Shown piece by piece: positions 1 to 63,844 of a stretch of 64,000 nt of DNA (position 1 is its first letter; every line of letters begins with the position of its first letter). The translations under genes and the position numbers were made by a program. Origin of the DNA: Gloeobacterales cyanobacterium. Lineage in GTDB: Bacteria > Cyanobacteriota > Cyanobacteriia > Gloeobacterales > PMM-0068. The stretch covers positions 58,189-122,188 of the forward strand of contig JBBRSB010000011.1 in assembly GCA_038245785.1 (NCBI GenBank), read 5' to 3'. The notes beneath the pieces are model-generated. The model saw nothing but the letters and a program-made list of their open reading frames with translations, was not told where the DNA came from and ran no database searches.

Positions 1-557
1 AAAGTAGAAAATGCCAATCATAAAAGAAAGCTAAAGTTATCCCTAATATCCGTATAACCGCTGACAACACACCTGCAATCATTGCCATAGTATGAGGCGC
101 AACACCAATGTCAGTGGAACAGATTTATCTGATTCCCAACTGCCTTGTGTTGCATATAGCTAATGGTTTTCCAATGTATTTGGTTAAGGCCAACGTTTTC
201 ATTGGGATGAAAACTATACATAAAGGAGTGAGCGTGAAATGTCATCTAGCCATGAAGAAAAGCTGTAACGGGGAGTTGGCCTCTGGCTTGCTAATTATGC
301 CTGCAATCTATAGCTAGATCTGCCCCAATGTCAGCTAAAAGCGCGAGAACTGAGCCCATCACTGCAGGGACGAACGTTCTTCTTAAATTGTTTCATCCTT
401 CTTCCTCTTAGAACCTAGATCGCGGCATACCTCCCACTCAGTTCCTGTCACCGATAGACAAATTTTTCTTTTCTTGACGTAGCTTCTTGCCATGAAAGCT
501 GGAAGCGCAAAGAGGTACGAACTTCACAAAATCTCGACAATAATTCACGGAGTGATC

Positions 558-2102
558 ATGAGACAACCTATCAATAACCACACAAAGCACGCACCACATA
601 GCCTACTTGAGCAGTCTAAGTATGGTCGCCTGTGGTTCCTAGCACAGTTTGCGATGGTGGCTGTTCTGTTGCCCTTTGCCGCTCAAGCGCTTCCCTTAGA
701 CGCTCGCCCACAGCCGTTGCTATTAGCTCAGGCCACGGCACCCGCCGAGCCCAACCCCAACTGCACCCTGATTGTGCCCGCTAGCCCCCTTACAGCTAAA
801 GGACTCGCAACGCCCTATCAATTGACCGCGACGGATCCTGCGGCTGGTCCCTGTAGTGAATCCGTCAAGGTTCAAGCATCGTTTGTTGAAGCTGCGATTA
901 TTGACCCAGCTAATGGGCAGATTGTGATTTATCATCCCTTGATCGTTGACAAGGGGCAGCAGCCAGCAAAACCTCCTGTCGTCCCTTATCTGCCACCCAA
1001 CGCAAAAGTGGGCATCTGGTTTGGTGGCAACGGTGGAACTCTAACCCTCCAGGGTACGGACGACTTAGCGCTTAGTAAGTGTGTTAACGGCCTACCTGGT
1101 GGTGACAACTTCGGACAGGTCGCCTACTGCAATGCACCAGCCTTCTTCCGTGCTGCTCACCGCGCTATCCGCTATGGGCAGTTACAAGTTCCAGCCTTAG
1201 GGGTGGCCAAGGATGGTCAGACATGTCCCACTGTCAGGGATTTTTCGATCGTGGACATGGACCAAAGCGACAATGTCCTCGCAACCTATTTGGTGACCGC
1301 AGATGGAAAACTGGCCCAGGAGACTCAGGCTAATAAACAGGCACTGCCGGGAGCAAAGCAGCTCAAAAATGCCAGTGATAACCGCCTCGTTGCCATTGCC
1401 GTCAATGGTGCCTTAGGTTGCTCCCCGTGGAAAGCACCCAACCTCACCGATCCTGGTCAAACCGTGGCAGCCCTTGCTCTTAATGAAATACAAGCGAGAC
1501 TTTACCAGTCCCGACCCATTGCCAGGGTTCCGGCTGGTCATGCCATGGTTCTAACTAACGGCCAGCCCAACTTGGAGAAGCTGAACGCCTATCGTCGAGG
1601 CGTTTTCCAAAGACCTGTGTATTCCCTGGAGTTTGCAGACACCAAGCGCTACTGCCGTCGTCTCTTCCGAATAGCACCCGCCAGATTTAGTCTGGATGAA
1701 GTCTACACCAGGCCTGCAGCCTCACCGGATCCTGACGCCTCGAATTCTTTATTTACGTTTCTGGCACAGCGGTTTGTGGCCACAAATGAAGCTCTAGGCT
1801 GTTCGACCGCACTGGGCGTAGAAAACCCAGTGACCGTGATCACTAATGCTGACGGTGTCGCCATCGATGCCAAGATCAGTCTTCCTGCCGATGCCAGCAA
1901 CCAGGCCAAGTTGGCTCCTGCCGCCCCTGCTGATAACCAACAGGCAGCAACAGAGGCCGCTGTGGAAGCACCCGCCGCGACTGCACCAGCCGCAGAAACA
2001 CCCGCAACAGAAGCCGCACCTGTCGCACAACCAACAACAGCAGCACCCGCGACCGTACCTGCTGCACAACCAACAACAGCGGATGTACCTCCAGGCCAAT
2101 AA
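558..2102 (+). CDS. Secreted Cys-containing hypothetical protein with Ala/Pro/Thr-rich C-terminal tail
   Basis: Long ORF (track start 492; ATG 558 preceded by GGAG). Hydrophobic signal-like segment ending AAQA, 8 Cys in the core, low-complexity APAAT/QPTT tail. Confidence 0.8.
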   Translation: MRQPINNHTKHAPHSLLEQSKYGRLWFLAQFAMVAVLLPFAAQALPLDARPQPLLLAQATAPAEPNPNCTLIVPASPLTAKGLATPYQLTATDPAAGPCSESVKVQASFVEAAIIDPANGQIVIYHPLIVDKGQQPAKPPVVPYLPPNAKVGIWFGGNGGTLTLQGTDDLALSKCVNGLPGGDNFGQVAYCNAPAFFRAAHRAIRYGQLQVPALGVAKDGQTCPTVRDFSIVDMDQSDNVLATYLVTADGKLAQETQANKQALPGAKQLKNASDNRLVAIAVNGALGCSPWKAPNLTDPGQTVAALALNEIQARLYQSRPIARVPAGHAMVLTNGQPNLEKLNAYRRGVFQRPVYSLEFADTKRYCRRLFRIAPARFSLDEVYTRPAASPDPDASNSLFTFLAQRFVATNEALGCSTALGVENPVTVITNADGVAIDAKISLPADASNQAKLAPAAPADNQQAATEAAVEAPAATAPAAETPATEAAPVAQPTTAAPATVPAAQPTTADVPPGQ

Positions 2103-41242: not shown

Positions 41243-41831
41243 TCCGACAGATACACCCGGCAGGCACCCTGATAAAGGGCGCTTGATCGTTCTGACGGGG
41301 CCGAGTGGTGTGGGTAAAGGTACTTTGGTTCGCGCACTCAGAGAGCGGCATCCAGCCTTATTCCTATCGGTGTCGGCGACTACCCGGTCGCCACGCCCTG
41401 GAGAGGTGGATGGTGAGCATTACTACTTCCTGACGCTGGAGCAGTTTGAAGCGCTTATCCAGCAACAGGAACTCTTGGAGTACGCCCGGTATGTGGGCAA
41501 CTACTATGGAACCCCTCGTGCCGCCGTTTTAGAAAAGCTGGTGCAGGGTGTAGATGTTCTCTTGGAAATAGAGGTAGAGGGAGCCCGTCAGGTGGCCCAT
41601 ACCTTTGCAGGAGCCCTGCGTATTTTTCTTTTGCCTCCTTCTGAAGAGGAGCTGAAAAATCGCTTGGTCGGCCGTGGAACCGATGCGCCAGAGGCGATAC
41701 AGCGTCGATTGATCCGTGCTCAGGAAGAAATCCGCTATGCTCCAGAGTTTACCTATCAAGTGGTGAATGGGGAGCTAGAACAAGCACTGCAGGCGATAGA
41801 GGCTATTCTTTACCCAGCATCACCTACTTAA
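41199..41831 (+). CDS. gmk: Guanylate kinase
   Basis: [34 protein letters not shown]; start codon uncertain. Confidence 0.96.
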
Positions 41832-42396
41832 CTTCGTCCAGGGCAAGATTCAGGGCAAGTACGTTGATGCGAGGTTCGCCGAAGATCCCCAGAAAACGTC
41901 CTTCTGTCTGATTGGTAATCAGCTTGCGCACGGTCCCTGGATCAAGGCCGCGCACCTTGGCAATCCGATTCACTTGGACATTCGCTCCCTCTGGCGTGAT
42001 GTGAGGGTCCAGACCTGAACCCGGTGTCGTGACCAGATCGATGGTGGGCTTGACTCCGTTTTTGGCTTCAAAGGCCGCTGTGTCTGTTTTCACCCGGTCG
42101 ATGAGTAGCTTATTGGTGGGGGAGAATTGGCTGGCACCAGAGGCTTCTGCCTTGTAGTCGATTGAACTGGGGCGGCCTTGGAAATAACGGTCTGAGGTGA
42201 ACTTCTGACCAATGAGCGATGAGCCAATAGCCTGACCTTGTGCATTTCGCACAAGAGAGCCATTAGCTTGGTTTGGGAAGGCCACCTGGGCAAAAGCATT
42301 GATAACAAGAGGATAGACAAGACCACAGGCGATCCAGAAAAAGAGAGTCATCCGGACGCCTGTGCCGATTTCTTTGAAGGTGGACGTGATAGACAT
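41824..42396 (-). CDS. kdpC: K+-transporting ATPase subunit C
   Basis: [43 protein letters not shown]. Confidence 0.97.
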
Positions 42397-42424
42397 GACC
42401 GTTCTCCTGATGGATTAGGCAAAA

Positions 42425-44506
42425 CTAGGCAAAACCAACTGCGGTGACAAAGAGATCAATAAGCTTGATACCGATGAAAGGCACCACTAACCCGCCGACC
42501 CCGTAGATGAGGATATTGCGGGTCAGTAACTGGTCAGCGCTGAGAGGCTTAAACTCCACGCCTTTGAGCGCTAGGGGAATCAGGGCTGGGATGATAAGCG
42601 CATTGAAGATCAGTGCTGAGAGAATGGCTGAGGTGGGGCTGGTAAGACCCATGATGTTGAGGGCACCAATCCCGGCAGCGGTGAACATGGCGGGGATGAT
42701 GGCGAAGTATTTTGATACGTCGTTGGCGATGCTAAAGGTGGTCAGTGCGCCTCGGGTAATCAGCAATTGTTTGCCGATCGTCACCACATCAATGAGCTTG
42801 GTCGGGTCTGAATCGAGATCGACCATGTTGGCTGCTTCTTTGGCGGCCTGGGTCCCTGAGTTCATCGCCACGCCCACATCTGCCTGGGCCAAGGCTGGAG
42901 CATCGTTAGTCCCATCGCCCGTCATCGCCACGAGCTTGCCCTGAGCCTGGTTCTCTTTAATGACGCGAATTTTGTCTTCGGGGGTGGCTTCGGCAATAAA
43001 GTCATCAACCCCCGCTTCCTGGGCAATGACCGAAGCGGTGATCCGGTTATCACCTGTGAGCATAATCGTCTTGATACCCATGCGCCGCAGTTCTTCGAAA
43101 CGATCTTTGATACCGGGCTTGACAATGTCCTTAAGATAGATCACGCCGAAGATTTCTGTGCCCTCGCAGACGGCTAGCGGTGTACCCCCCAGACGCGATA
43201 CCCGCTCTGTGGCTGCATCTAGATCCGCTGGAATCTGTCCGCCCTGATTGAGCACGTAGCGCTTGATCGCATCGACAGCTCCCTTGCGCACCATGCGACT
43301 ATCCCCAAAGTCAGTGCCGCTCATCCGTGTTTGGGCAGTGAACTCGATACCTTCTGCTCCGTCGGGATTGTAGCCAACAGCGGCTCCCTCACGCTCAGCA
43401 AGTTTGACGATGGACTTGCCTTCGGGAGTGGCATCAAAGAGCGAACCGGCCCAGGCAATCGTAGCTATTTCTCGCCTGCTATGTTTCCCAACTGGGATAA
43501 ACTCGTCAGCCAGGCGGTTGCCTAGTGTAATCGTGCCCGTCTTATCAAGAATGAGCGTGCCGACATCGCCTGCTGCTTCCACGGCCTTACCAGAGGTGGC
43601 GATGACATTGAACTGAGCGACCCGGTCCATCCCCGCGATGCCGATAGCGGAGAGTAACCCCCCAATCGTCGTTGGAATCAGAGCGACGAGCAGGGCCACC
43701 AGGGTAGCGATGCTCACAGGTGCCCCGACAAAGCTAGCGATCGGGGGCAAAGTAGCAACAACGACCAGAAAAATCAGCGTCAGCACGGCCAGCAGGACCG
43801 TGAGCGCAATTTCATTGGGAGTCTTCTGGCGTTTGGCCCCCTCGACTAGGGAAATCATCCGGTCAATAAACCCTTCGCCAGGATTCGAGGTGATGCGGAT
43901 CTCAAGCGTATCGGAAAGGATGCGGGTGCCGCCCGTCACCGTGCTGGCCACGTCCGAACCTGGCTCTTTAATCACGGGAGCCGATTCACCCGTGATCGCC
44001 GATTCGTCCACAGAGGCAACGCCTTCGAGGACCTCACCGTCGCCAGGAATCAGATCTCCTGCTATGACCCGGATCGTATCTCCTTTGCGCAACTGGGTGG
44101 AGGAGACCTCTTCCGTTGTTCCATTGGCTAATACGCGACGAGCAAGGGTATCCTGCTTGGTGCGCCGCAGAGCATCGGCCTGCGCTTTGCCTCGTCCTTC
44201 TGCCACGGCCTCAGCAAAGTTAGCAAACAGCACAGTCACCAATAAAATGGCCGTAATCAGCCCGTTGAGCAGGCGCGTGCCCGGCTGCGGTCCGAATAGA
44301 TTGGGCTCAATGGTTAAAGCGAAGGTAATCAGGGTGCCAACCAGCACTACGAACATCACTGGATTTTTGTAGAGGGTGAGGGGATTGAGCTTGGTGAATG
44401 ACCCAACAATGGCGCGCTGATAGATGCCAGAGCTATCCACCGTGCGGCGATTCAGCCTCTTCGAAGCCAGAGATGCCTGCACAGTCGGTTTCGTTTTTAC
44501 TTCCAT
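42425..44506 (-). CDS. kdpB: K+-transporting ATPase subunit B
   Basis: [42 protein letters not shown]. Confidence 0.98.
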
Positions 44507-44518
44507 CGGTGAAGATTC

Positions 44519-46246
44519 CTAAAATGTTTTACCAGCGAGGTTGGCAAAGAATTCAGCCAGTGGACCGAGGGCAGCAATCGGGAAGAGAGTCAGACCGCCA
44601 AGGATGAGGATCGTTCCGGCGGTAACGGCACCGAATAAGGGCGTGTCCGTGCGCAGCGTGCCCGGTGTCTCAGGGACAAGCTTCTTCTGCTGCAAGCCAC
44701 CAGCCAGAGCCAAGAGGGCGATGATCGGTACATAGCGGCCCAAGAGCAGCACTACCGCACAGGTGTAATTCCACCAGGGCACGGCGCTGGTCAACCCTCC
44801 AAGGCCGGAGCCATTGTTTGCAGCAGCGGAAATATATTCGTAGAAAGGCTCGATCATGCCGCGATAGAGGGGGTTGCCCAGGGTGAGCAGTCCGGGGATG
44901 GACAGGGCGATGGCCAGGGGTATTTTGGTGATGATCGGCTGAAGCAAGAAGATAATGCTCGCCAGGGCCACTTCACGTTTTTCAATCTTGCGTCCGAAGA
45001 TTTCTGGGGTACGACCGACCATCAGACCCGTCAGAAAGACGGCAATGATCATGAAGATCAGGATGTAGGCTAGTCCAGTTCCTTGACCACCCCAGATCAC
45101 CTGCATAAACATGTTAAAAATGGCAACCAGTAAGGCCATCGGCGTCAGTGAATCGTGCATGCCATTGACGGCTCCGGTCATCGTTCCGGTGGTGGAAGTG
45201 GCAAAGAGGGCGGTCTGGGACCAGCCGAAGCGCACTTCCTGGCCTTCAAAGTTGGGGTTAGCCGTTCCCAAGATGGCGTTCAGGGTTGGGTTTCCAAAGT
45301 ATTCGCTGGTGGCAGCCACTCCGACGAGTACGACAAATAGGGCAAAGATTGTCCAGAAGATTACCCATCCTTGTTTTTTATTACCCGCCATAATGCCGAA
45401 GGTGTAGATAAACGAGGTGGGAATCGCCAACATCAGCAGAATCTGAAACAGGTTGGTGAACGGATTCGGATTCTCGTAGGGATGGGCAGAGTTCGTCGCA
45501 TAGGAACCACCGCCGTTCTCGCCCAGTTGCTTGATGCTTTCCATCGAGGCGAAGGGACCCGTGAATAGCTTTTGGGTGGTGACGGTTTCAGTCTTGCCGT
45601 TGGTCACGGTTGTGTAGGGATCGGTGAGCTTCACCTCGGTAATGGCGCTCAAGTTCTGAGGAACCCCCTGGCTCAGGAAGACGACCGCAAAAACGATCGA
45701 AATGGGCATCAAAATGCGCGAGATACTGCGGGTCAGATCTACATAGAAGTTACCCATCGGCTTGCCGAGGATGCCCCGGATAAAGGCAATGCCGACGGCT
45801 AGCCCTGTCGCCGCTGAGGTGAACATCAGAAATTGTAAGCAGACCATCTGGGTAAGGTGGCTAGCTCCCGTTTCACCGGAATAGTGCTGCTGGTTGGTGT
45901 TGGTCAGAAATGAAATGGCGGTGTGCAAGGCCAGGTCCGGCGTCATCCCAGAAATGCTGTTGGGATTGAGAGGTAAGCTACCTTGCAGCAGTAGTATCGC
46001 AAACACAGGTACGAACATGGCAACGTTGCTGATCAGCAAGGCGCGGGCATAGGCCCACCAGTCCATGTCCTCGTTTGGATCAACGCCTCCAAGCTTATAA
46101 ACCAGTCGTTCTACTGGATCGAAAAGTGGATCAAACCAAGTCTTCTGTAATTGGAAGACTCGAGCCATATAGGTACCCAAGAAAGGCACGATGGCTACCA
46201 TAAGGAAGATGGTGACTGCAATTTGCAAGAACCCTGAAAAAGCCAT
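44519..46246 (-). CDS. kdpA: K+-transporting ATPase subunit A
   Basis: FLTNTNQQHYSGE, LGENGGG, NSAHPYENP, GRTPE, ANNGSG. Confidence 0.98.
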   Translation of the reverse strand: MAFSGFLQIAVTIFLMVAIVPFLGTYMARVFQLQKTWFDPLFDPVERLVYKLGGVDPNEDMDWWAYARALLISNVAMFVPVFAILLLQGSLPLNPNSISGMTPDLALHTAISFLTNTNQQHYSGETGASHLTQMVCLQFLMFTSAATGLAVGIAFIRGILGKPMGNFYVDLTRSISRILMPISIVFAVVFLSQGVPQNLSAITEVKLTDPYTTVTNGKTETVTTQKLFTGPFASMESIKQLGENGGGSYATNSAHPYENPNPFTNLFQILLMLAIPTSFIYTFGIMAGNKKQGWVIFWTIFALFVVLVGVAATSEYFGNPTLNAILGTANPNFEGQEVRFGWSQTALFATSTTGTMTGAVNGMHDSLTPMALLVAIFNMFMQVIWGGQGTGLAYILIFMIIAVFLTGLMVGRTPEIFGRKIEKREVALASIIFLLQPIITKIPLAIALSIPGLLTLGNPLYRGMIEPFYEYISAAANNGSGLGGLTSAVPWWNYTCAVVLLLGRYVPIIALLALAGGLQQKKLVPETPGTLRTDTPLFGAVTAGTILILGGLTLFPIAALGPLAEFFANLAGKTF

Positions 46247-46258
46247 CTGCTGACCTCC

Positions 46259-46348
46259 CTAAAACCATTCAGGTTTGACCATCACCAGTAGCAGATAGGC
46301 TGCTAAGGCAAGGGTGATACACAGCAAAATAATTAGCGGTGCGGTCAT
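46259..46348 (-). CDS. kdpF: K+-transporting ATPase subunit F (29 aa), not in ORF track
   Basis: MTAPLIILLCITLALAAYLLLVMVKPEWF, YL...PE.F signature, directly upstream of kdpA. Confidence 0.9.
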   Translation of the reverse strand: MTAPLIILLCITLALAAYLLLVMVKPEWF

Positions 46349-46445
46349 TTCTTTTTTCTCTGTCCATTTATATTTTTGTTCTGCAACCATTGAGTAATAT
46401 TTGGATGTGCTCTGGCAAGGGGATAGTTCAGATTCTGGACGGTTA

Positions 46446-46507
46446 ATATATACCGGATACTTAGTGATATATACCAGTTGATATATGCTTCCTAGATATC
46501 TATATTT
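46446..46507. promoter_or_regulatory. Repeated ATATATACC-like motifs in the kdpF/HK divergent promoter
   Basis: ATATATACC at 46446 and 46467 (21 bp apart), variants at 46481 and about 46496. Confidence 0.45.
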
Positions 46508-46565
46508 CAGTTAGAAACAAGTTCTTTTTGCTAAGCTAAAAGTATCTGCCAGCGGTCATCAAAGT

Positions 46566-47657
46566 ATGTTCCTGGGAAGAAGTCTCCAGTTCAAGCCTGT
46601 CACCGGATATATCACTCTAATTTTTGTGGTGATCTTGGTGCTGGAATTCTTGACGCCGCCAGAGTACATCTTCGGCTATCTATATGTGGGTCCGATTCTG
46701 CTGGCTAACTGGTTTCTAGACCGACGCAGCACTCTATTCGTTACGGTATTGAGCGCCGCGCTGACTTTTGCGAATCTACTGTTTCCTCACTACGCTCTAA
46801 ATAATTCGATTGCCTTTACCAATCGGCTAATCACCGTTGCAGCCTTGCTCACGGTGGCTTACCTCGGAACCCAATATCGGCAGATGCAGGAAGAGACCAC
46901 TCAACAGAAAGCTCAACTACAAGCACGGGAAGAACTGGCGAAGGCTCAGGCAGACTTCATTGCCACCCTTACCCATGACCTGAAGACACCGCTACTCGGT
47001 GCCCAGCAGACACTCTCCTTCTTCGAGCAGGGGCAGTTTGGTCTGATTACCACTCAGCAGCAAGGGGTTCTGGAGACGCTGCAAAAGAGCAACTATAAGC
47101 AGCTCGCCCTAGTGGATACACTGCTGGCTATCTATCGCAACGACCTATCGGGCCTGCAGCTGAAAAAGCGGCGTTTGGATCTGGATGAGCTGTGTGCTGA
47201 GCAGATCATGGCCCTTAACGATTTAGCCCTCAACCGCAAGATTGAGCTGGCCTATGAAGGACTGAACCAGGCCCAATGCGAAGGGGATGATTTGCAGCTG
47301 AGTCGAGTCGTGGCCAATCTGGTGGGCAATGCCATCAACCATACTCCGCGTGGCGGTCGCGTCTTAGTCCAGCTATCCCAGGCCCAAGGTGAATATCGCC
47401 TGCTGGTAGAAGATACAGGCTCCGGCATCCCTTCGGCAGACCTCAAACGGATTTTTGACCGTTTCTACCAGTCGGACAATACGCGACATATCCCTGGTAC
47501 GGGGCTAGGGCTTTATTTGGCCAGGCAGATTATTGAAGCCCATGGTGGCCGTATCTGGGCAGCAAATCGTCCTAGCGGCGGCTGTTTGTTTGGGGTAGGA
47601 CTGCCTGCTCATGCATCGATTACCGCTAAATCACCTTCCTTCTTAAACACACTATGA
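46566..47657 (+). CDS. Membrane sensor histidine kinase
   Basis: About 4 TM; THDLKTPL, NLVGNAINHT, DTGSGI, FDRFYQ, GTGLGL. Confidence 0.95.
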   Translation: MFLGRSLQFKPVTGYITLIFVVILVLEFLTPPEYIFGYLYVGPILLANWFLDRRSTLFVTVLSAALTFANLLFPHYALNNSIAFTNRLITVAALLTVAYLGTQYRQMQEETTQQKAQLQAREELAKAQADFIATLTHDLKTPLLGAQQTLSFFEQGQFGLITTQQQGVLETLQKSNYKQLALVDTLLAIYRNDLSGLQLKKRRLDLDELCAEQIMALNDLALNRKIELAYEGLNQAQCEGDDLQLSRVVANLVGNAINHTPRGGRVLVQLSQAQGEYRLLVEDTGSGIPSADLKRIFDRFYQSDNTRHIPGTGLGLYLARQIIEAHGGRIWAANRPSGGCLFGVGLPAHASITAKSPSFLNTL

Positions 47658-48316
47658 CTACTCATTCGCCGATCACAGTTCTATTAGTTGAAGATGACCC
47701 TCTATTCCGCATGGGGCTGGCCCTTGTGATTCGCAACCATCCTGAATTGGAACTGGTAGGCAAAGTAGAGGATGGAGAATCGGCTCTTGAAATGCTGACG
47801 CAGCAAGTACCGCAGATTGTGCTCCTAGATATTGGTCTACCGGGATTGGGTGGAGAAGAGACCCTGGTGCGCATTAAACGTGAATATCCTCAGGTACGGG
47901 TATTGGTGCTCACCTCCCGCGAAGAGGCCCGGATGGTGCAGAAGATGCTCCAAGCTGGTGCCGATGGTTACTGCCTCAAGGGCATCACTCCCGACCACCT
48001 CCTGACGGTGATCAAAGAAGTCAGTGCTGGCAACGGTTGGTTCGACTCCAAAGTCCTGAGTCACATGCGAGAAGCTTGGACCGCTGAACCGATTACGCTA
48101 TCGGGGCGAACAGCCGCGCTCACGGAGCGGGAGCAAGAAGTGCTCCAGTGGATTGCTTGCGGTGCCAGTAACCCGGAGATTGGCCAATACCTGCATATCT
48201 CCAGTGGTACGGTGCGGGTTCATGTGCATGCTATTTTGCGCAAGTTAGGAGCAAGCGACCGCACCCATGCCGCTGTGCTGGCGCTCGAACGGGGACTGAT
48301 TTCTTCGCCTGAATGA
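47654..48316 (+). CDS. NarL/LuxR-family response regulator
   Basis: VEDD, LLDIGLPG, GYCLK; LTEREQEVL...HVHAILRKLG. Confidence 0.95.
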   Translation: MTTHSPITVLLVEDDPLFRMGLALVIRNHPELELVGKVEDGESALEMLTQQVPQIVLLDIGLPGLGGEETLVRIKREYPQVRVLVLTSREEARMVQKMLQAGADGYCLKGITPDHLLTVIKEVSAGNGWFDSKVLSHMREAWTAEPITLSGRTAALTEREQEVLQWIACGASNPEIGQYLHISSGTVRVHVHAILRKLGASDRTHAAVLALERGLISSPE

Positions 48317-48340
48317 TTAAACAGACATAGGACAGAAAGC

Positions 48341-50587
48341 ATGAGCGAAAATGAACGCCCCGATCCACAAGGACTGCTGCGAGAGCTGATGCAGTATTCC
48401 AGAGGAAGACTAAAACTCTATCTGGGCTATGCTCCTGGCGTTGGCAAGACGACGCGGATGCTGCGGGATGCTCAGCAACTACACCAACGAGGGGTGGATC
48501 TGGTAGTGGGCATTGTTGAAACCCACGGCAAGCCAGAAACGATGCAGCTACTAAATGGATTGGAAGTCATGCCTCTGCGCTCAATTTCTTATCAGGGCAC
48601 GATTCAGACAGAGTTAGATCTGGAGGCTATTCTAGAGCACCGACCCGCTACCGTACTCATTGATGAATTGGCCCATACCAATGTTCCTGGCAGTCGCTAT
48701 CACAAGCGCTTTGAGGATGTGGAAGCCCTTCTGAACGCGGGCATTAGTGTACTCTCCGCCATAAATATTCAACATCTGGAGCGGGTATCTGAAACAGCGG
48801 GACGACTGATTGGTATTCCAGTTCACGAAGTGGTTCCTGACCGCTTTCTCCAACATGCGGATGAACTACAACTGGTCGATGCCAGCCCAGAGACCGTTCT
48901 GGAGCGGTTGGCCCAAGCTAAGATCCCAGTGGGTAGTCCTTTCTTGCGCCGCAGCACTCTGACCTACCTGCGTGAACTGGCTTTGCGCACCGTTGCTGAG
49001 GTCGTAGACGCAGATATTCTGGCTCGTCAATCTGGGGTTACAAGTCCGGCGGGCATCCGGGAACGCCTGCTCGTGGCGGTGAGTACCAGTCCTGCTTCTG
49101 CCCGACTGATCCGTCGCGGAGCACGCATCGCTGAATATCTCGATGCAGAGCTGTTTATTGTCTTCGTTGAGAATGGCCGACCTATCCCTGAAAGGCAGCG
49201 ACCCCTACTCCAAGAATATGAGCAATTCAGTCAGCAAGGCGGCGGACAGTTCGTTCGGTTGCAGGGTGTGAACATTGCAAAAACGCTGATTACCTTTGCT
49301 TTGGAAAAAAATATCACTCAGGTAATCGTCGGTGAATCGTTGCGCTCGCCTTTGGAGGAATTAGTGCGCGGCTCCGTCGTCAACGCGCTGCTGCGCTCTG
49401 GCAACAACCTGGATGTACTGGTAGTCGGTGAAACAGAGTCGGTGATCAATCTCCCCGCTCAGCCAAGGCCCTTACCTCAGCAGCGCACCTGCTTTTTGTC
49501 CACGAGCCAGGAACGCGGTGATCGCAACTGTGGACGGCACAAGATATATCTGGGAGCGGCTCCCGGCGTCGGCAAAACCTATACCATGCTCCAGGAAGCC
49601 CATGACCTGGCTGCTGCTGGGGTCGATCTAGTTTGCGGCGTTATTGAAACCCATGGTCGGGCCGAGACGGCTGCCCTGATCGAGGGTCTGGAGATGATTC
49701 CAAAGCGTTCCATTGTGTACCAAGGTCGAATTTTTCAGGAACTGGACCGCGAAGCCGTACTGGCGCGACGACCGGCAGTGGTCCTGATTGATGAGCTGGC
49801 CCATACCAACGTTCCCGGCACCGACACGAGCAAACGCTACCAGGATGTCGAGATTTTGCTAGCGGCGGGGATAGAGGTTATCTCGACCCTCAATATTCAG
49901 CACTTGGAGAGCCTGAATACCCTCGTGGAGCGCACAACGGGCGTCAAGGTGCGTGAGACGCTCCCAGACTTAGTAGTTGGGTGCGCTGATGAAGTGATGC
50001 TCATCGATCTATCCACGGATGAACTGACGCAGCGACTGCGCGAAGGCAAAATCTACAGTCCTGCCAAAGTAGAACAAGCCCTATCTAACTTCTTTCGCGC
50101 CGAAAACCTGATTGCGCTGCGAGAATTGGCTCTTCGAGAACTAGCCGACGATTGCACTACTACCAAAAACGGTAGTGGAACAGCCCGACCGGATGAATGC
50201 GTAATGGTTTGCGTCAACCTGCGTCCGAACGCTCGGCAGCTGATCCGCAGAGGAGCCCGTATTGCCCGACGATTGGGAGCACGACTGGTCGTTGCCTATA
50301 TCCACCATCTAGCAGGAGAGTCCCTAACGGCTGCGATGCGCGAAGAATTGGGTCGTCTTCAACAGTTGAGCACAGAACTGGAAGGCATTTTTATCGAGCA
50401 GTCAGCCAACGATGTTGTCACTCAAATCGTCCTTCTTGCCCAAGCGCAGTCTGCCACTTTGCTGATCCTGGGAGAATCGCGTCGTTCTTGCTGGGAGGAG
50501 GTATTCCATGGTTCGGTCATCGAACAGGTCCTACGTCGAACGCGCAATCTGGATACGCTCATCGTTGGCAATTTTGAACGCGAGTAA
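48341..50587 (+). CDS. kdpD: Stand-alone KdpD N-terminal protein with tandem (KdpD-domain + USP) x2
   Basis: Two copies of G(Y/A)APGVGKT...ETHG...DELAHTN...NIQHLE...LRELALR, each followed by a USP domain; no TM or His-kinase domain. Confidence 0.88.
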   Translation: MSENERPDPQGLLRELMQYSRGRLKLYLGYAPGVGKTTRMLRDAQQLHQRGVDLVVGIVETHGKPETMQLLNGLEVMPLRSISYQGTIQTELDLEAILEHRPATVLIDELAHTNVPGSRYHKRFEDVEALLNAGISVLSAINIQHLERVSETAGRLIGIPVHEVVPDRFLQHADELQLVDASPETVLERLAQAKIPVGSPFLRRSTLTYLRELALRTVAEVVDADILARQSGVTSPAGIRERLLVAVSTSPASARLIRRGARIAEYLDAELFIVFVENGRPIPERQRPLLQEYEQFSQQGGGQFVRLQGVNIAKTLITFALEKNITQVIVGESLRSPLEELVRGSVVNALLRSGNNLDVLVVGETESVINLPAQPRPLPQQRTCFLSTSQERGDRNCGRHKIYLGAAPGVGKTYTMLQEAHDLAAAGVDLVCGVIETHGRAETAALIEGLEMIPKRSIVYQGRIFQELDREAVLARRPAVVLIDELAHTNVPGTDTSKRYQDVEILLAAGIEVISTLNIQHLESLNTLVERTTGVKVRETLPDLVVGCADEVMLIDLSTDELTQRLREGKIYSPAKVEQALSNFFRAENLIALRELALRELADDCTTTKNGSGTARPDECVMVCVNLRPNARQLIRRGARIARRLGARLVVAYIHHLAGESLTAAMREELGRLQQLSTELEGIFIEQSANDVVTQIVLLAQAQSATLLILGESRRSCWEEVFHGSVIEQVLRRTRNLDTLIVGNFERE

Positions 50588-52423: not shown

Positions 52424-55036
52424 GTGGCTCTCTCTAAAGCATCCAAGAACACTTCGAGAAATTCCTACAAGCATTTTCTTGCGACGACTTTACTGATCAG
52501 TGGAGCCTTGTCCTTGGCTACTCCCGTATTCGCAGATGGCACGGTGGCAGGGACCGGAATTAGCAACACGGCTACGGCTACCTATACAGACCCAGTAACC
52601 GATCCTACAGGGGCAACTCCGATTCCCGCTACCTCCAACACTGTCCAGATCACGGTTAGTGAAGTGGCTGGTATTACAGTCGTAGCCCAACCTCCGAGCA
52701 ATGCAGCTCCTAACGCAGGCGACACCGTCTACGTCGATTATGTAATTACAAACACGGGTAACGACCCCACCCAATTCTTCATTCCTGGCACGGTCACCTT
52801 CTCCAATACAACAGCCTTTAGTCAAGGAACTATTCAAGTCGTGGCCGTCAATGGTACTGCCATCACTGCGGTGAACGTCCCGGCAGCAGGAGCTTCTACG
52901 AGTACTTTAGGTGTGGGGGCTTCTGGCTCTATCGCCGCCACAGGCAGCATCACGGTTCGTGTGCCGATTACTGTTTCTGGATTGGCTACCGCAACAACTG
53001 CGCTCACGGTTGCTTTAGGAAACACCGCTACCGCTGACCAGCAAAACCAAGCCTCTGTCGCAGGGGGCGTCAATGGTAGTCCTTCTCCAGCGAGAGATTT
53101 GATTACCCAGGATAATCCTACGGCCAGCGGGAGCGGAACTACCCAAGAACTGAATGCAACCGCTCCTGTCAACGGCGAACGTGAAGCAATGGCTACCAGT
53201 ACGGCCATCACCGTAGCGGCTAGACTACAAGCCTTCGTCAGCGTTTTGAAGGCTACGGGTAGCTACACCAACAGTGGAACCCCGAACGCCCTCAGCGATG
53301 ACATCCTGACCTACAACTTGGCCTTGCGCGTTGAGAATCCCGTACCAGGAGCTGGCTTAGTCTCTTCTGACTTGTATGCCACCCAGGTCAATGTAGATGG
53401 AAGCAATGTCAATCGTGTGCTGATCTCGGATGCTATCCCAGCTAATACCCAACTGAGCGCGGCTACACCTACGGCTCCTAGTGGTTGGACACCTGTTTAC
53501 ACCGTAAGCCCCAGCGGGACGAATCCGCTCCAAGCCAACTGGGTCACGGCCCGTCCCGGCGGAACGATCACCCGCGTCGGTTTTATCAACAACGGTCCCA
53601 TTACCAAAGGCACCACGGTCGGCACAACGGGTTCCTTCTTCACCTTTAGCGTCAATCCTACTGCTGGCTTCACCGGCGGTCAGGTAGCGAACCTGGCTCA
53701 GACCTTTGGTCAATCGCAGCCAGGTGCTGTCGTAGCGAATACCGCTACTCAGCTTGTGTACGATGAATCCGGGGACCAAACTTATAACAACGGCTTGATT
53801 GGCACGAACCCCGATCCACTCACTGGGGGCACGGCGGCTGCCTCGGGCGGTATCAGCAACGGAGTCGCCTCTGTGACAGCCGATGGCACGGACACGGGTA
53901 CAGGAACTGACCCTACGAATACAGGGACCACAAACTTAGGCCTAGATACTGGCGTGAATGCTGGTACGAAGCCTGCCGGTGGGGAAGATACCATCTACTC
54001 CATCGCGGCGGTTCCTCTGAATGGCCCCAGTGGACAACCAGGGGCAACAGGTCCGGCAGGCTCAGGGGACACCAACAATGACTTTACCAATCGGTCGCTG
54101 ATTCCACCCGCTGGCCTCAATCCCGCTACAGCCCTGACGGATGCGCAAACTACAGCCGTTACCTTTACGAATACGGTTCAGAACACCAGTGCGGCGTCCC
54201 AGGTTATTGCTCTACTGCCCACGCCTCCTGCCGTTGCAACAGATTTACCCGATAACACCAAAGTCACGATAACAGACCCCATTTCAGGAAATACCGCACT
54301 CTACAACTACACGGCTGCGGGCGGGTTTGCCTTTGTTTCTGGAACTGGAACGACAGCTACGAGCCCGATCAAACTAACTGTTGCCGGAGGAGGAACCGCA
54401 AACTACACCATCACCGTTGACCTCCCGGCTGCTGCTCAGCTTACGGGCTATCCTGTTCCCCTCACTTCCTTTATTGATCAGAACGGTAACGGCCTACCGG
54501 ATACTTCTGAGCCTAATAACAAGACCATTGACCGAGTATACACAGGGTATCTACAGTTGCTCAAGAAGTCTCGTATTCTACAAGGAACGGGGCCTGCCGT
54601 ATCGGCTGCGGATGCGGTTTTGGATGCTAATCCAAAGTCGCCTGCCCCCGGCAATATCATTGAGTATCAGGTTTCTTACCAAAACATCTCACTCCCCGCC
54701 GGATCTGGCACGGGCAATGTGGTTTTGAACGCAGCCAACGTCACCATTACGGAGAATGGAACGATTGGCAGCGGTGGCAATAACTGGGCTCTGGACAATG
54801 CGGCTCCGGCTGGTGTGATTGACACCAGTAATGTTGCAAGTTCAGCCACTGATCCTACGGCTGGTGCAGTGATCACCTTCTTCAGTGGGGCTGGCCCGAA
54901 CCCGGCAGGGGCTGCAACCACGACCACGAGCGGGACTAGCCAAGCAACGGACGTCACTAAATATGTCGATACCGTGGGCACCATCGCTCCTGGTGCTTCC
55001 GTAGGAACCTTCACTTTCCAACGCAAGCTCAACTAA
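52424..55036 (+). CDS. Secreted Thr/Gly/Ala-rich multi-Ig (DUF11-like) surface protein, putative major subunit
   Basis: Signal peptide ending PVFA; N-terminal GTVAGTGISNTATATY; DUF11-like units (GDTVYVDYVITNTGN; VLK..DILTYNL..ISDAIP..ANLAQ; LLKK..PGNIIEYQVSYQN); ends TFTFQRKLN. Confidence 0.85.
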   Translation: MALSKASKNTSRNSYKHFLATTLLISGALSLATPVFADGTVAGTGISNTATATYTDPVTDPTGATPIPATSNTVQITVSEVAGITVVAQPPSNAAPNAGDTVYVDYVITNTGNDPTQFFIPGTVTFSNTTAFSQGTIQVVAVNGTAITAVNVPAAGASTSTLGVGASGSIAATGSITVRVPITVSGLATATTALTVALGNTATADQQNQASVAGGVNGSPSPARDLITQDNPTASGSGTTQELNATAPVNGEREAMATSTAITVAARLQAFVSVLKATGSYTNSGTPNALSDDILTYNLALRVENPVPGAGLVSSDLYATQVNVDGSNVNRVLISDAIPANTQLSAATPTAPSGWTPVYTVSPSGTNPLQANWVTARPGGTITRVGFINNGPITKGTTVGTTGSFFTFSVNPTAGFTGGQVANLAQTFGQSQPGAVVANTATQLVYDESGDQTYNNGLIGTNPDPLTGGTAAASGGISNGVASVTADGTDTGTGTDPTNTGTTNLGLDTGVNAGTKPAGGEDTIYSIAAVPLNGPSGQPGATGPAGSGDTNNDFTNRSLIPPAGLNPATALTDAQTTAVTFTNTVQNTSAASQVIALLPTPPAVATDLPDNTKVTITDPISGNTALYNYTAAGGFAFVSGTGTTATSPIKLTVAGGGTANYTITVDLPAAAQLTGYPVPLTSFIDQNGNGLPDTSEPNNKTIDRVYTGYLQLLKKSRILQGTGPAVSAADAVLDANPKSPAPGNIIEYQVSYQNISLPAGSGTGNVVLNAANVTITENGTIGSGGNNWALDNAAPAGVIDTSNVASSATDPTAGAVITFFSGAGPNPAGAATTTTSGTSQATDVTKYVDTVGTIAPGASVGTFTFQRKLN

Positions 55037-55141: not shown

Positions 55142-55693
55142 ATGAAGCGTTTATTCATCACTAGTTTTGCTACGGTTGCTCTGATGGTGCCTATGCTCTT
55201 CGGTGCTGCTGCCTTCGCTAAGGATGCTGCGCTTGCTCAAAGTGCTCAAGTCAAACCTCAAGTCCAATTGGTTCTGGCTGCTGAAAAGAAGATTCTGAAG
55301 AAGGACGAAAAGGGCAAGGAGCAGGTGACCTGGCAAGCGCTGGATAGTGGCAAGACCAATGTCCAATCTGGAGATACGGTCCGCTACACCGTGATTGGCA
55401 AAAACATTAGCGATAAGCCTGCCTCGAATTTAGTAATTACTGAGCCTGTGCCCAAGGGTACGGTTTATGTCTTGAACTCCAATGGTATGGAAGGGGCAGC
55501 AAAAGTTACCTACAGCATCGACGGAGCCAAGAACTATGTTGAGAAGCCTATGGTCCAAGTGTCTCTTCCTAACGGCAAAGTAGAGTCTAAACCTGCTCCC
55601 GCAGAAGCTTATACCAATGTCCGTTGGAATTTTGCAAAGAACCTTGGCCCTAAAGCAGCCGTAAAAGCGATGTATGAAGTAAAGGTGCGCTAA
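55142..55693 (+). CDS. Small secreted single-DUF11 protein
   Basis: Signal peptide; SGDTVRYTV, LVITEPVPKGTVYV, YSIDG, YTNVRW, ends MYEVKVR. Confidence 0.85.
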   Translation: MKRLFITSFATVALMVPMLFGAAAFAKDAALAQSAQVKPQVQLVLAAEKKILKKDEKGKEQVTWQALDSGKTNVQSGDTVRYTVIGKNISDKPASNLVITEPVPKGTVYVLNSNGMEGAAKVTYSIDGAKNYVEKPMVQVSLPNGKVESKPAPAEAYTNVRWNFAKNLGPKAAVKAMYEVKVR

Positions 55694-61162: not shown

Positions 61163-63844
61163 ATGAACGCTCAAATTAAGGAGCGCAACGCCCATAAAAG
61201 CATCCAAAAACTTCTCCATATGGTGATGTTTTTGGTCTGGGTTTTTACCGGCCTATTCCCAATTCAGCCTGTGCAAGCAGCTTTTCCTGGAATTGACGGC
61301 AGTTTGACCGTCACTTCCGCCAATACGATTTTGAATCAGTACAGTTCTGTAACCTCCATCAGTGGCAACACGATTACGGTGAGCGATATTAACAATTTGT
61401 TGAGTTCTGTAGTTAGTTCTAATGGATCCTTGGGGGCGCTGGCTCCAGGGGACCTACTCATGATTTACCAGGCTCAGGGTGCCACGATCGATGCAACCAA
61501 TACGGCCAGCTATGGCAGCGTTTCTAGCTATAACAGTGCGGGACGCTATGAATTTGTCGTCGTAGGCAGTATTAGCGGTAATACGATTACCTTGGCGACC
61601 ACCTGCGGCAATCTCAAAAATATCTACTCATCAACCTTTGCCCAAGTGATCCGGGTGCCACAATTTTCAAGCCTGACCATCAATAGTGGAGCTTCCGTAA
61701 CTGCCTCTGCCTGGAATGGTTCAACGGGAGGAATCGTTGCCATGCATGTGCAGGGAACCACTACGGTTAATGGCCAAATCGACCTAACCGGTAAAGGATT
61801 TCGCGGCGGCGCTGTCGTGAACAACAGCGGAAACAATTCGGGAAGCACGACGTATCGCTCAAGCGGTAGTTACACAACGGGCGGTTTTGGCAATGGAGGG
61901 TTTACGGAGGATACCGTCGTCGGCGGTGAAAAGGGAGAAGGCATTGCCGGAAGCCAAACCAACTACGACACCTTGAACGGACGCTATGGACGAGGCGCGC
62001 CAGCCAATGGCGGCGGCGGTGGAACGGGGCACAACAGTGGCGGTGGCGGTGGAGCCAATGGAAACAATGGAGTTGCCTGGAATGGTCAAGGAAATCCTGA
62101 TACCAGTGGTACTGGTTGGACAACCGCATGGAATCGCGATCCAAGCTTGAGTGCTACAACTACCTCGGCTGGTGGCGGTCGTGGGGGCTACACCTACTCT
62201 GCTAATGATCGGAACGCTGCTACTACCTCTCCAGGCAATACAAGCTGGGGCGGAGATAATCGTCAAGAGGTGGGCGGTTTGGGCGGACGCCCTCTGGATT
62301 ACTCAGGTGGAGCACAAGCTCGCCTTTTTCTAGGGGGTGGGGGCGGTAGTGGGGATGCAAACAACAGTGCAGGGAGTGCTGGGGGCAATGGCGGTGGTAT
62401 GGCCTACCTGATTTCCAACAGCGTCACAGGTTCTGGCAGCATTCAGGCCAGTGGCACCAATGGAGGAGATACAACGGGTGGTCACAATGATGCTCCAGGC
62501 GGCGGCGGCGGCGGCGGTACCATTGTTGTGAAGGCAAGCGGCAGCCTCACGCTCAACGCCAATGGCGGTAATGGCGGTAGTCAGCTGATTACGGGAAACG
62601 AAGCTGAAGGACCAGGCGGTGGCGGTGGTGGTGGTTATATCGCGGCTACAGGCGGCACACAGACTGTCAATGCGGGAGTGAATGGCCTCACAAGTTCTAG
62701 CGCGCTAACTGAATTTAAACCCAATGGTTCTACCCGTGGGGCTCCGGGACAGACGGCGCCTCCGCCGACGGATGCCAATATTCCTCTTTGCTATACCCCT
62801 CAGATTGGAGTCGCTAAAGCTGTAAGTGCTGCCATGACTCGCAATAGCAGTAGTACGAGTTTCACCATTCCCTTTTCAATCGTGGTGAAAAATCAGGGGG
62901 ATGTCTTCCTGACCAACAGCCAAATTACAGAGAACTTGGCAACAACTTTTCCGCCAGGAGCTACCTCCAGTGTCACGAGTGCTCCGACGGTGACTTCAGG
63001 AAAACTGCTGACTATCAATCCCAGCTTCAATGGCGCCACTAATACGAATTTACTGTCTTCTGGACAATCTTTAGATATTGGAGAACAGTCCACCATTACC
63101 TTTAGTGTTCAAGTCACCCCAGACGCTATGCAAAGCTTCGGTCCATACAATAATCAGGCAACGGGTTCATCTACAGGCAATACTCCCAGTGGTAGCAACT
63201 TCAACACCACCGATCTTTCGGATAACGGTACCAATCCAGATGCCAACGGGAATGGCTTCCCCAACGAGACGAATGAAAATGATCCTACGCCTGTGCGGTT
63301 TACCCATTTGCGATTGGTCAAACGGATTACGGGGATTAAAAAAGGAACTACCTTAATACCCGTTACGGGCTACAACAACTTTGCTACAGATCCTAATGAC
63401 AACCCTACGGTGAGCTGGCCTAGTGGGGCGGCTACTTATTTGACAGGAGCTTTTGATGGTGCCCAAATTCCCACACCAATGCCAGGTTTACCTGGGCCTA
63501 ATGACGAAGTAGAATATACCATCTACTTCTTGTCTGATGGCGGTGCAGATGCGAGCAATGTAATCCTCTGTGATTTCATCCCTACAAATCAACAGTTTGT
63601 CCCTGGCACGATTCAGCGCAATGTGGGGGGTACTACTACAAATATTGCTGACGGCTCTGGTACAGGTCCAGGCAATGGATTTTATAACAGCACTAATACT
63701 TCTTTTCCCGCTGCCTGCCCAAGTGCCAATAATCATGGAGAGGGTGCTGTCTACGTTCAAATGGGTGTAATACCGACAGTAACGATCACTCCTACGCCTA
63801 GTACGTATTACGGCTTCCTGCGCTTCCGAGCGAAAGTGAAGTGA
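61163..63844 (+). CDS. Secreted Gly-rich adhesin-like protein with two DUF11-like domains
   Basis: Signal peptide ending PVQA; GDLLMIYQAQG, GRYEF, QVIRVPQ, AWNGSTGG; many G5-G7 runs; IGVAK..YNNQAT; LRLVKRIT..EYTIYF..LCDFIP; ends FRAKVK. Confidence 0.85.
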   Translation: MNAQIKERNAHKSIQKLLHMVMFLVWVFTGLFPIQPVQAAFPGIDGSLTVTSANTILNQYSSVTSISGNTITVSDINNLLSSVVSSNGSLGALAPGDLLMIYQAQGATIDATNTASYGSVSSYNSAGRYEFVVVGSISGNTITLATTCGNLKNIYSSTFAQVIRVPQFSSLTINSGASVTASAWNGSTGGIVAMHVQGTTTVNGQIDLTGKGFRGGAVVNNSGNNSGSTTYRSSGSYTTGGFGNGGFTEDTVVGGEKGEGIAGSQTNYDTLNGRYGRGAPANGGGGGTGHNSGGGGGANGNNGVAWNGQGNPDTSGTGWTTAWNRDPSLSATTTSAGGGRGGYTYSANDRNAATTSPGNTSWGGDNRQEVGGLGGRPLDYSGGAQARLFLGGGGGSGDANNSAGSAGGNGGGMAYLISNSVTGSGSIQASGTNGGDTTGGHNDAPGGGGGGGTIVVKASGSLTLNANGGNGGSQLITGNEAEGPGGGGGGGYIAATGGTQTVNAGVNGLTSSSALTEFKPNGSTRGAPGQTAPPPTDANIPLCYTPQIGVAKAVSAAMTRNSSSTSFTIPFSIVVKNQGDVFLTNSQITENLATTFPPGATSSVTSAPTVTSGKLLTINPSFNGATNTNLLSSGQSLDIGEQSTITFSVQVTPDAMQSFGPYNNQATGSSTGNTPSGSNFNTTDLSDNGTNPDANGNGFPNETNENDPTPVRFTHLRLVKRITGIKKGTTLIPVTGYNNFATDPNDNPTVSWPSGAATYLTGAFDGAQIPTPMPGLPGPNDEVEYTIYFLSDGGADASNVILCDFIPTNQQFVPGTIQRNVGGTTTNIADGSGTGPGNGFYNSTNTSFPAACPSANNHGEGAVYVQMGVIPTVTITPTPSTYYGFLRFRAKVK

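Follow-up and report, generated by a model that had tools for sequence, protein, structure and literature searches.

How would a presumably secreted protein use a domain whose two halves lie at opposite ends of its chain? The question is raised by gene A, the putative shaft subunit gene of a five-gene operon (genes A to E) in the window, by which we mean the whole 64,000-nt stretch of cyanobacterial (Gloeobacterales) DNA that was analysed. Elsewhere in the window, at 41824-50587, lies what we take to be a kdpABC-like cluster on the reverse strand, opposite a two-component pair and a gene for a 748-aa protein; by eye, this protein presumably contains two tandem KdpD-like N-terminal sensor units without the kinase part.

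Gene A and its conserved ends

The N-terminus of gene A is signal-peptide-like and ends in P-V-F-A37, as judged by eye and by conservation, with A37 present in 101 of 105 relatives. The initial annotation had let the feature begin at 52535, which is codon D38, right behind this segment. The strand motifs that it had named are also present, with I-S-N48-T-A-T-A-T-Y and T-S-N72-T-V near the N-terminus, and Y-L-Q-L-L-K714, the strand P-G-N-I-I-E-Y, V-T-I-T-E777 and the chain end at N870 near the C-terminus. A long spacer does separate the two halves, but it measures about 630 residues (81-706) rather than the claimed ~650.

We picked 136 relatives of gene A with less than 90% mutual identity from 187 candidates. 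Asn48 and Lys714 are kept in all of them, and position 777 is always Glu or Asp. Lys714 is the only invariant residue among 14 lysines, and Asn48 is one of 7 invariant residues among 67 asparagines. Because Asn48 and Lys714 are found in 136/136 relatives and position 777 holds Glu in 134 and Asp in two, the feature as read from these alignments is more than chance. The chain ends three residues past R867 in 125 of the 136 relatives and 4-14 residues past it in the other 11, and the spacing between N699 and K714 is invariant in all 136. Asn48 is residue 11 of the predicted mature chain and sits 666 residues ahead of Lys714, so that the triad is not contained within one continuous domain.

The sole Pfam match of gene A is DUF7925, a predicted carrier of intramolecular bonds and a sister family of CLIPPER/DUF11 (PMC12617251, Table 1). 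Its own triad is kept in nearly all relatives (K276 in 134/136, D336 and N423 in 136/136). Shafts of 573 to 969 aa retain both ends, the shortest (573 aa, L084) being without DUF7925. We found no convincing promoter, terminator or hairpin 3' of gene A (z +1.3), and sequence and profile searches found no relative of gene A in the PDB.

Table 1. Features of gene A, its operon partners and its fused relatives (positions are those of the window unless a locus is given)
Feature	Position	Strand	Remarks
Gene A, putative shaft subunit	52424..55036	+	870 aa, GTG start; N-terminal donor hairpin and C-terminal acceptor domain
Likely Sec signal peptide of gene A, residues 1-37	52424..52534	+	sequence pattern; conservation of P34 and A37
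Donor hairpin, residues 38-80	52535..52663	+	predicted last two strands of a DUF11/CLIPPER-type domain
Asn48, predicted isopeptide partner	52565..52567	+	136/136; on conserved Asn of intact repeats
Domain 1 of gene A (about 83-265)	52670..53218	+	complete DUF11-like Ig domain without first-strand Lys; window scores 34-38
DUF7925 domain of gene A (272-456)	53237..53791	+	Pfam E 1.3e-56; predicted intramolecular isopeptide K276/D336/N423
Domain 3 of gene A (about 552-706)	54077..54541	+	beta-sandwich; last strand continues directly into acceptor
Acceptor domain (707-870)	54542..55033	+	DUF11/CnaA-type sandwich, predicted without last two strands
Lys714, predicted isopeptide Lys	54563..54565	+	136/136; aligned ranges imply register with K193 of RrgB and K188 of GBS104
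Glu777, predicted catalytic acid	54752..54754	+	134 E and 2 D of 136
Gene B, 183 aa	55142..55693	+	acceptor without donor, A47 in place of Lys; candidate chaperone (reversible) or cap
Gene C, 498 aa	55775..57271	+	donor only (N43), intact DUF11 K249/D283/N350, SdrD-B-like end; candidate base adaptor
Gene D, 1227 aa	57268..60951	+	Ig-like N-terminal part, long barrel-like part; candidate outer-membrane pore/anchor
Gene E, 893 aa	61163..63844	+	AgmC_N-like head; acceptor at C-terminus (K720, D804), no donor; candidate tip adhesin
Fused adhesin	L081:5265-13391	-
Fused adhesin	L082:6917-14263	+
Fused adhesin	P0122 / L090

The two ends as halves of one DUF11-type domain

The initial annotation had read the two ends as a split, circularly permuted DUF11 domain. 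This reading holds: it is well supported that gene A carries a split DUF11/CLIPPER-type domain with its halves at opposite chain ends, because the profile matches of the two halves abut without overlap, the predicted fold of the C-terminal half stops just before the position of the bonding Asn, and the halves occur naturally fused in order.

For the first of these lines we built a profile of the intact domain. A search with the gene B profile, its results dominated by giant repeat adhesins and thus giving no range for B, supplied 149 long repeat proteins, from which 1956 repeats were cut, 721 aligned and 400 used. The acceptor alignment (80 rows) matches positions 13-88 of this profile and ends at N870 (probability 95, E 3.7e-8), and the donor alignment (79 rows) matches positions 89-106, where N48 falls on the conserved Asn. 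At 18 columns (probability 39) the donor match is short; its score of 21.1 compares with 9.7+-2.3 for 100 column shuffles, none of which reached it. These positions cover the first donor strand, and the second was placed by eye against the intact-repeat consensus. By this profile-profile comparison both halves of gene A are homologous to intact DUF11-type repeats. Pfam DUF11 (PF01345) matches neither the window acceptor nor the 80 aligned acceptors at E<=1, and the DUF11 link of the acceptor rests on the custom 400-repeat profile together with the fold comparison. Against the DUF11 domain of gene C, the profile comparison was too shallow for the donor to be placed; it aligned Glu777 to the DUF11 Asp, a position that is ambiguous in the 400-repeat profile.

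The acceptor, predicted alone, forms seven strands with a pLDDT of 87.9. We compared this model with 48,161 chains and used the aligned ranges rather than the rank, since the Z values were middling and the top match, AP-4 mu4 (Z 8.3), is unrelated. Against RrgB (2x9z) the alignment covers 187..307 (Z 6.4, rmsd 2.3, 97 aligned) and stops 11 residues before Asn318; against GBS104 (3txa) it covers 182..680 (Z 5.2, rmsd 2.4, 93 aligned) and stops 12 residues before Asn692, these being the bonding asparagines of the two proteins (PMC12617251, Table 1). Both alignments begin six residues ahead of the bonding Lys, just as the acceptor model does ahead of K714. The CLIPPER structure 9ifr aligns over 90 of 123 residues (Z 6.6, rmsd 2.2). 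Foldseek returned nothing at E<=0.001 with the acceptor model, and only generic multi-Ig matches with the full gene A model.

It could be argued that the two ends are unrelated, in which case the acceptor would be a whole domain of shorter length and the motif at the N-terminus would serve export or some other partner. The acceptor is indeed predicted to fold alone with high confidence and lacks a Pfam DUF11 match, but the abutting profile matches, the exact spacing in the natural fusions and the complementary donor/acceptor pattern over five genes (both below) make this explanation exceedingly improbable.

Natural fusions of the two halves

An acceptor search of 301 cyanobacterial genomes gave matches in 36, two of them in frames of more than 2400 aa (L081 and L082). 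In both frames the acceptor match is immediately followed by a donor match, within large proteins that end in RTX repeats. In a third protein, P0122 of genome G370, the whole shaft is circularly permuted, with profile positions 506-821 followed by 33-506. The natural fusions lay out domain 3, acceptor, donor and domain 1 in line, and the Asn stands ten residues past the acceptor end in all three fused cyanobacterial adhesins. Only among these three fused relatives, and not in gene A, do the positions of Lys, acid and Asn fall within one continuous domain. Two of the three keep Lys, Glu and Asn; in P0122 Thr replaces Lys and Gln replaces Glu, which indicates that the fold can be retained when the bond is lost.

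The three fusions form one clade with a support of 98 in a quick tree (midpoint root, no clade test) and are therefore attributed to one event. That other phyla have split shafts suggests that the fusion is the derived state. A search with the fused domain gave matches in 120 of 401 cyanobacterial genomes, and among the matches listed only two were whole-length without a stop. Single-protein searches of the three genomes with fusions found gene B in none and gene D in one. The fused adhesins are large adhesin-like proteins that took up the tail-to-head fused shaft piece as a stalk.

Donor and acceptor halves across the operon

We surveyed 80 named cyanobacterial loci with a 10-kb flank. Behind gene A, which is first in the operon in the loci read, we found gene B in 79, gene C in 78 and gene D in 76, the misses of B to D lying at contig ends; an E-type gene was found in 47, and E may fall outside the flank. 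Donors were scored in the first 140 residues and acceptors at the C-terminal end of complete open reading frames, with profiles built from the same loci, so that it is the zeros that carry weight. Gene A has a donor in 78 and an acceptor in 79 of 79 frames. For the other genes the donor and acceptor counts are 0 and 79 of 79 (B), 75 and 0 of 75 (C), 0 and 0 of 73 (D), and 0 and 46 of 46 (E).

The bonding residues follow this pattern. With the window included, the donor Asn of gene C (N43) is kept in 75 of 76 sequences, and gene E has its Lys (K720) in 45 of 47, the other two being gaps, and D804 in 47/47. Genes B and C pass the Pfam DUF11 (PF01345) cut-off, and the intact DUF11 domain of gene C matches 9ifr and holds its triad K249/D283/N350 in 76/76. 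The Lys position of gene B is Ala, Val or Gly in all 80 sequences (Lys in 0/80), and its acid position is Gln in 79 of 80. The one exception is gene B of the window, with Glu at 55442-55444. Distant B genes (L083, L085, L086) have Asp at the acid position and Gly at the Lys position.

Gene D gave weak matches to barrel families (26 D members). At the level of sequence, neither the Pfam comparison of these 26 (E<=0.1) nor the profile search of the PDB turned up an usher. We take Anabaena All3289 to be a candidate homologue of gene D, its length fitting that of the D relatives in Nostoc. All3289 is a large protein of 1289 aa with a possible C-terminal outer-membrane anchor (PMC9705863). For the head of gene E (61163-62200) the match is to the N-terminal region of Myxococcus AgmC (NF047640), at E 8e-53 and below the cut-off. 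Tip heads differ between loci and the acceptor is retained.

An acceptor-only tip, a donor-only base, a Lys-less acceptor and a barrel-like protein make a gene neighbourhood that fits a fibre. Since the operon has acceptor-only and donor-only members that keep the bonding residues, the sequences favour intermolecular over intrachain pairing of the two halves of gene A. Intrachain closure, in which the hairpin folds back into its own C-terminal domain or a small ring forms, would make gene A a true circular permutation. Such closure could draw on the presence of both halves on one chain, on the tolerance of CnaA-type domains for inserted domains (PMC12617251) and on the alignment of the acceptor with RrgA and GBS104, which have inserted domains. 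We nevertheless consider it very unlikely: there is almost no interdomain linker (the spacings are fixed), the inner domains vary, with two or three tolerated, the natural fusions are linear in order, and the donor-only C and the acceptor-only E retain their residues while being unable to close on themselves. The full-length AlphaFold2 model of gene A leaves the donor unplaced (pLDDT <50) and shows no intrachain closure, which is weak either way. Co-variation between donor and acceptor is weak as well, with 5 of 5109 pairs above z 4 against 0-1 for other domains and Y54-G708 as the best pair (z 5.1); these values come from about 77 effective sequences and include lineage effects.

A proposed covalent fibre

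We propose that gene A probably encodes a donor-hairpin pilus shaft, locked by an intermolecular Lys714-Asn48 bond into a covalent head-to-tail fibre, as its sequence conservation and predicted structure suggest. The gene A product would be exported by the Sec route and cleaved after A37. The mature N-terminus of each copy would supply the two-strand hairpin that the last domain of the preceding copy lacks, and an isopeptide bond between Lys714 and Asn48 would then form by itself across the two chains, with Glu777 as the likely catalyst. The tip protein E, an acceptor only, would receive the first shaft donor and cap the far end, and further shaft copies would be added at the base. Protein C, a donor only, would close the chain and link the fibre to the barrel protein D, and B, an acceptor without Lys, may be a chaperone or cap that binds donor hairpins reversibly. 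The fibre might serve adhesion or aggregation.

The joints could instead be non-covalent, in a donor-hairpin polymer of the chaperone-usher kind that keeps Lys, Glu and Asn for packing only. Glu here replaces the usual Asp of CnaA-type domains, the bond is missing from some DUF11 domains (both PMC12617251), and the G370 fusion has lost Lys and Glu. Yet the acceptors of shaft and tip retain both Lys and acid, which B has lost as a pair, the donors of shaft and base retain Asn, and a buried Lys in 136/136 relatives is hard to account for otherwise; on balance we hold non-covalent joints to be unlikely. It is also unlikely that gene A is a one-copy connector, a spacer in a modular covalent adhesin of tip, A and base without a long polymer. 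At 870 aa it is large for a pilin, and its fused forms serve as single stalk modules; against this, its own donor and acceptor are the pair found naturally fused, so that A-A joints look allowed, and A heads the operon in the loci read.

Comparison with known systems

We compared the proposed covalent fibre with known systems as the accessible parts of the cited sources describe them. The CLIPPER/DUF11 domain (PF01345, PDB 9IFR) forms an intramolecular bond in the stalks of monomeric adhesins (PMC12617251). The operon would share with it the CnaA-type sandwich with a first-strand Lys, an acid and a penultimate-strand Asn, intact in gene C and, as the sister family DUF7925, within gene A. The split domain of gene A differs in three ways: its Asn strand is at another end of the chain, its acid is a Glu, and its acceptor escapes detection by Pfam.

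BsaA of Clostridium perfringens, of the TasA family, makes its own intermolecular isopeptide bond (N35/E56/K74) by 'exchange and lock' (bioRxiv 10.1101/2024.11.04.621531). Gene A would resemble it in its N-terminal donor Asn (N48) and its receiver Lys and Glu (K714, E777), which are conserved and known here from sequence. Whereas BsaA is a Gram-positive TasA-family protein with one donor strand (28-38) and a SipW peptidase, gene A is DUF11-type and multi-domain, with a two-strand hairpin and a barrel-like partner. None of the five proteins has a TasA/camelysin Pfam match at E<=1, the gene A profile matched nothing in the PDB, and no SipW-type peptidase was seen in the operon or in the adjacent entries of the list of open reading frames.

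As in chaperone-usher pili (type 1, P; PMC13721041), an N-terminal donor would complete the Ig fold of a neighbour, as sequence and fusions suggest, and the operon has candidates for a tip, a shaft, a terminator-like member, a small periplasmic helper and an outer-membrane barrel. In those pili, by contrast, the joints are non-covalent and of one strand, and the chaperone donates a strand whereas gene B is an acceptor. No Pfam match to an usher or PapD-type family was found among the operon proteins. The operon has no two-domain PapD-type chaperone; its only small protein is B, a single DUF11-type acceptor without a donor in 79/79.

With the archaeal thread Saci_0406 (PMC9715654) the fibre would share head-to-tail joining by donor strands, an intermolecular isopeptide bond, which is a proposal for the thread too, and a cap gene with a donor only. 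The thread differs in being archaeal and in its bond, which runs from an Asn to the N-terminal amine of subunit n+2, and the accessible text on it makes no mention of DUF11. The initial annotation had likened the pair to SpyTag/SpyCatcher, whose tag is a single strand; a better analogue is DogTag/DogCatcher, from RrgA domain 4, in which a hairpin tag carries the Asn and the catcher carries the Lys and a catalytic Glu (PMC8878318). DogTag/DogCatcher is an engineered split of another domain, whereas the split in gene A is natural and both ends of the subunit are used. Of sortase-pilus traits, we found neither an LPXTG motif nor a hydrophobic tail on A, and no sortase family among the five genes.

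Three further systems were considered and rejected as descriptions of this one: Tat-fimbriae, where the text matches to 'DUF11' are to DUF1102 (PMC11821415), F-ENA (PMC11844507), and the Litorilinea hook, which has intact tandem DUF11 (10.1101/2025.08.19.671072), each as far as the accessible text goes. A full-text search of mainly open-access papers found no description of such a fibre. Donor-strand pili assembled through a barrel and the exchange-and-lock of BsaA are known separately, and their combination is covered by no family tested.

Distribution and other loci

By matches to the acceptor and to the fused domain, respectively, the five-gene operon type occurs in 36 of 301 and in 120 of 401 of the cyanobacterial genomes sampled. 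By eye, the same plan is present on plasmids of Deinococcus sp. QL22 and the alphaproteobacterium Pacificitalea manganoxidans. The genome of the window holds a second operon copy (G000:C1:276602-292888, reverse strand) with shaft, base, barrel and two tips and without B, and its single gene B may serve both copies. In L087 (1154-7080) two divergent shaft genes flank B in one operon, possibly a mixed fibre or a stage before fusion. Shaft, base or barrel genes in two pieces occur in several operons (L061:730-3307; L003:13396-14845; L072:3918-5509; L022:14994-21334; L083:1740-9596) and reflect either decay or assembly error.

Discussion

The operon may well stand for a class of pilus not yet described, present in cyanobacteria, Deinococcus and proteobacteria, all bacteria with two membranes, a view to which we incline, if only by a little. 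Such a pilus would be enzyme-free and covalent throughout by means of a split CLIPPER domain, with an 'inverse' chaperone whose capping of the donor hairpin prevents early assembly, a giant outer-membrane barrel of its own through which it is threaded, and every joint a natural Tag/Catcher pair.

If true, two-membrane bacteria, for which few classes of pilus are known, would gain one more. New tags for protein ligation, and protein fibres with covalent joints, might be derived from the donor/acceptor pairs. For the cyanobacteria, the finding would give a function to a five-gene operon and would point to an unstudied route of export across the outer membrane.
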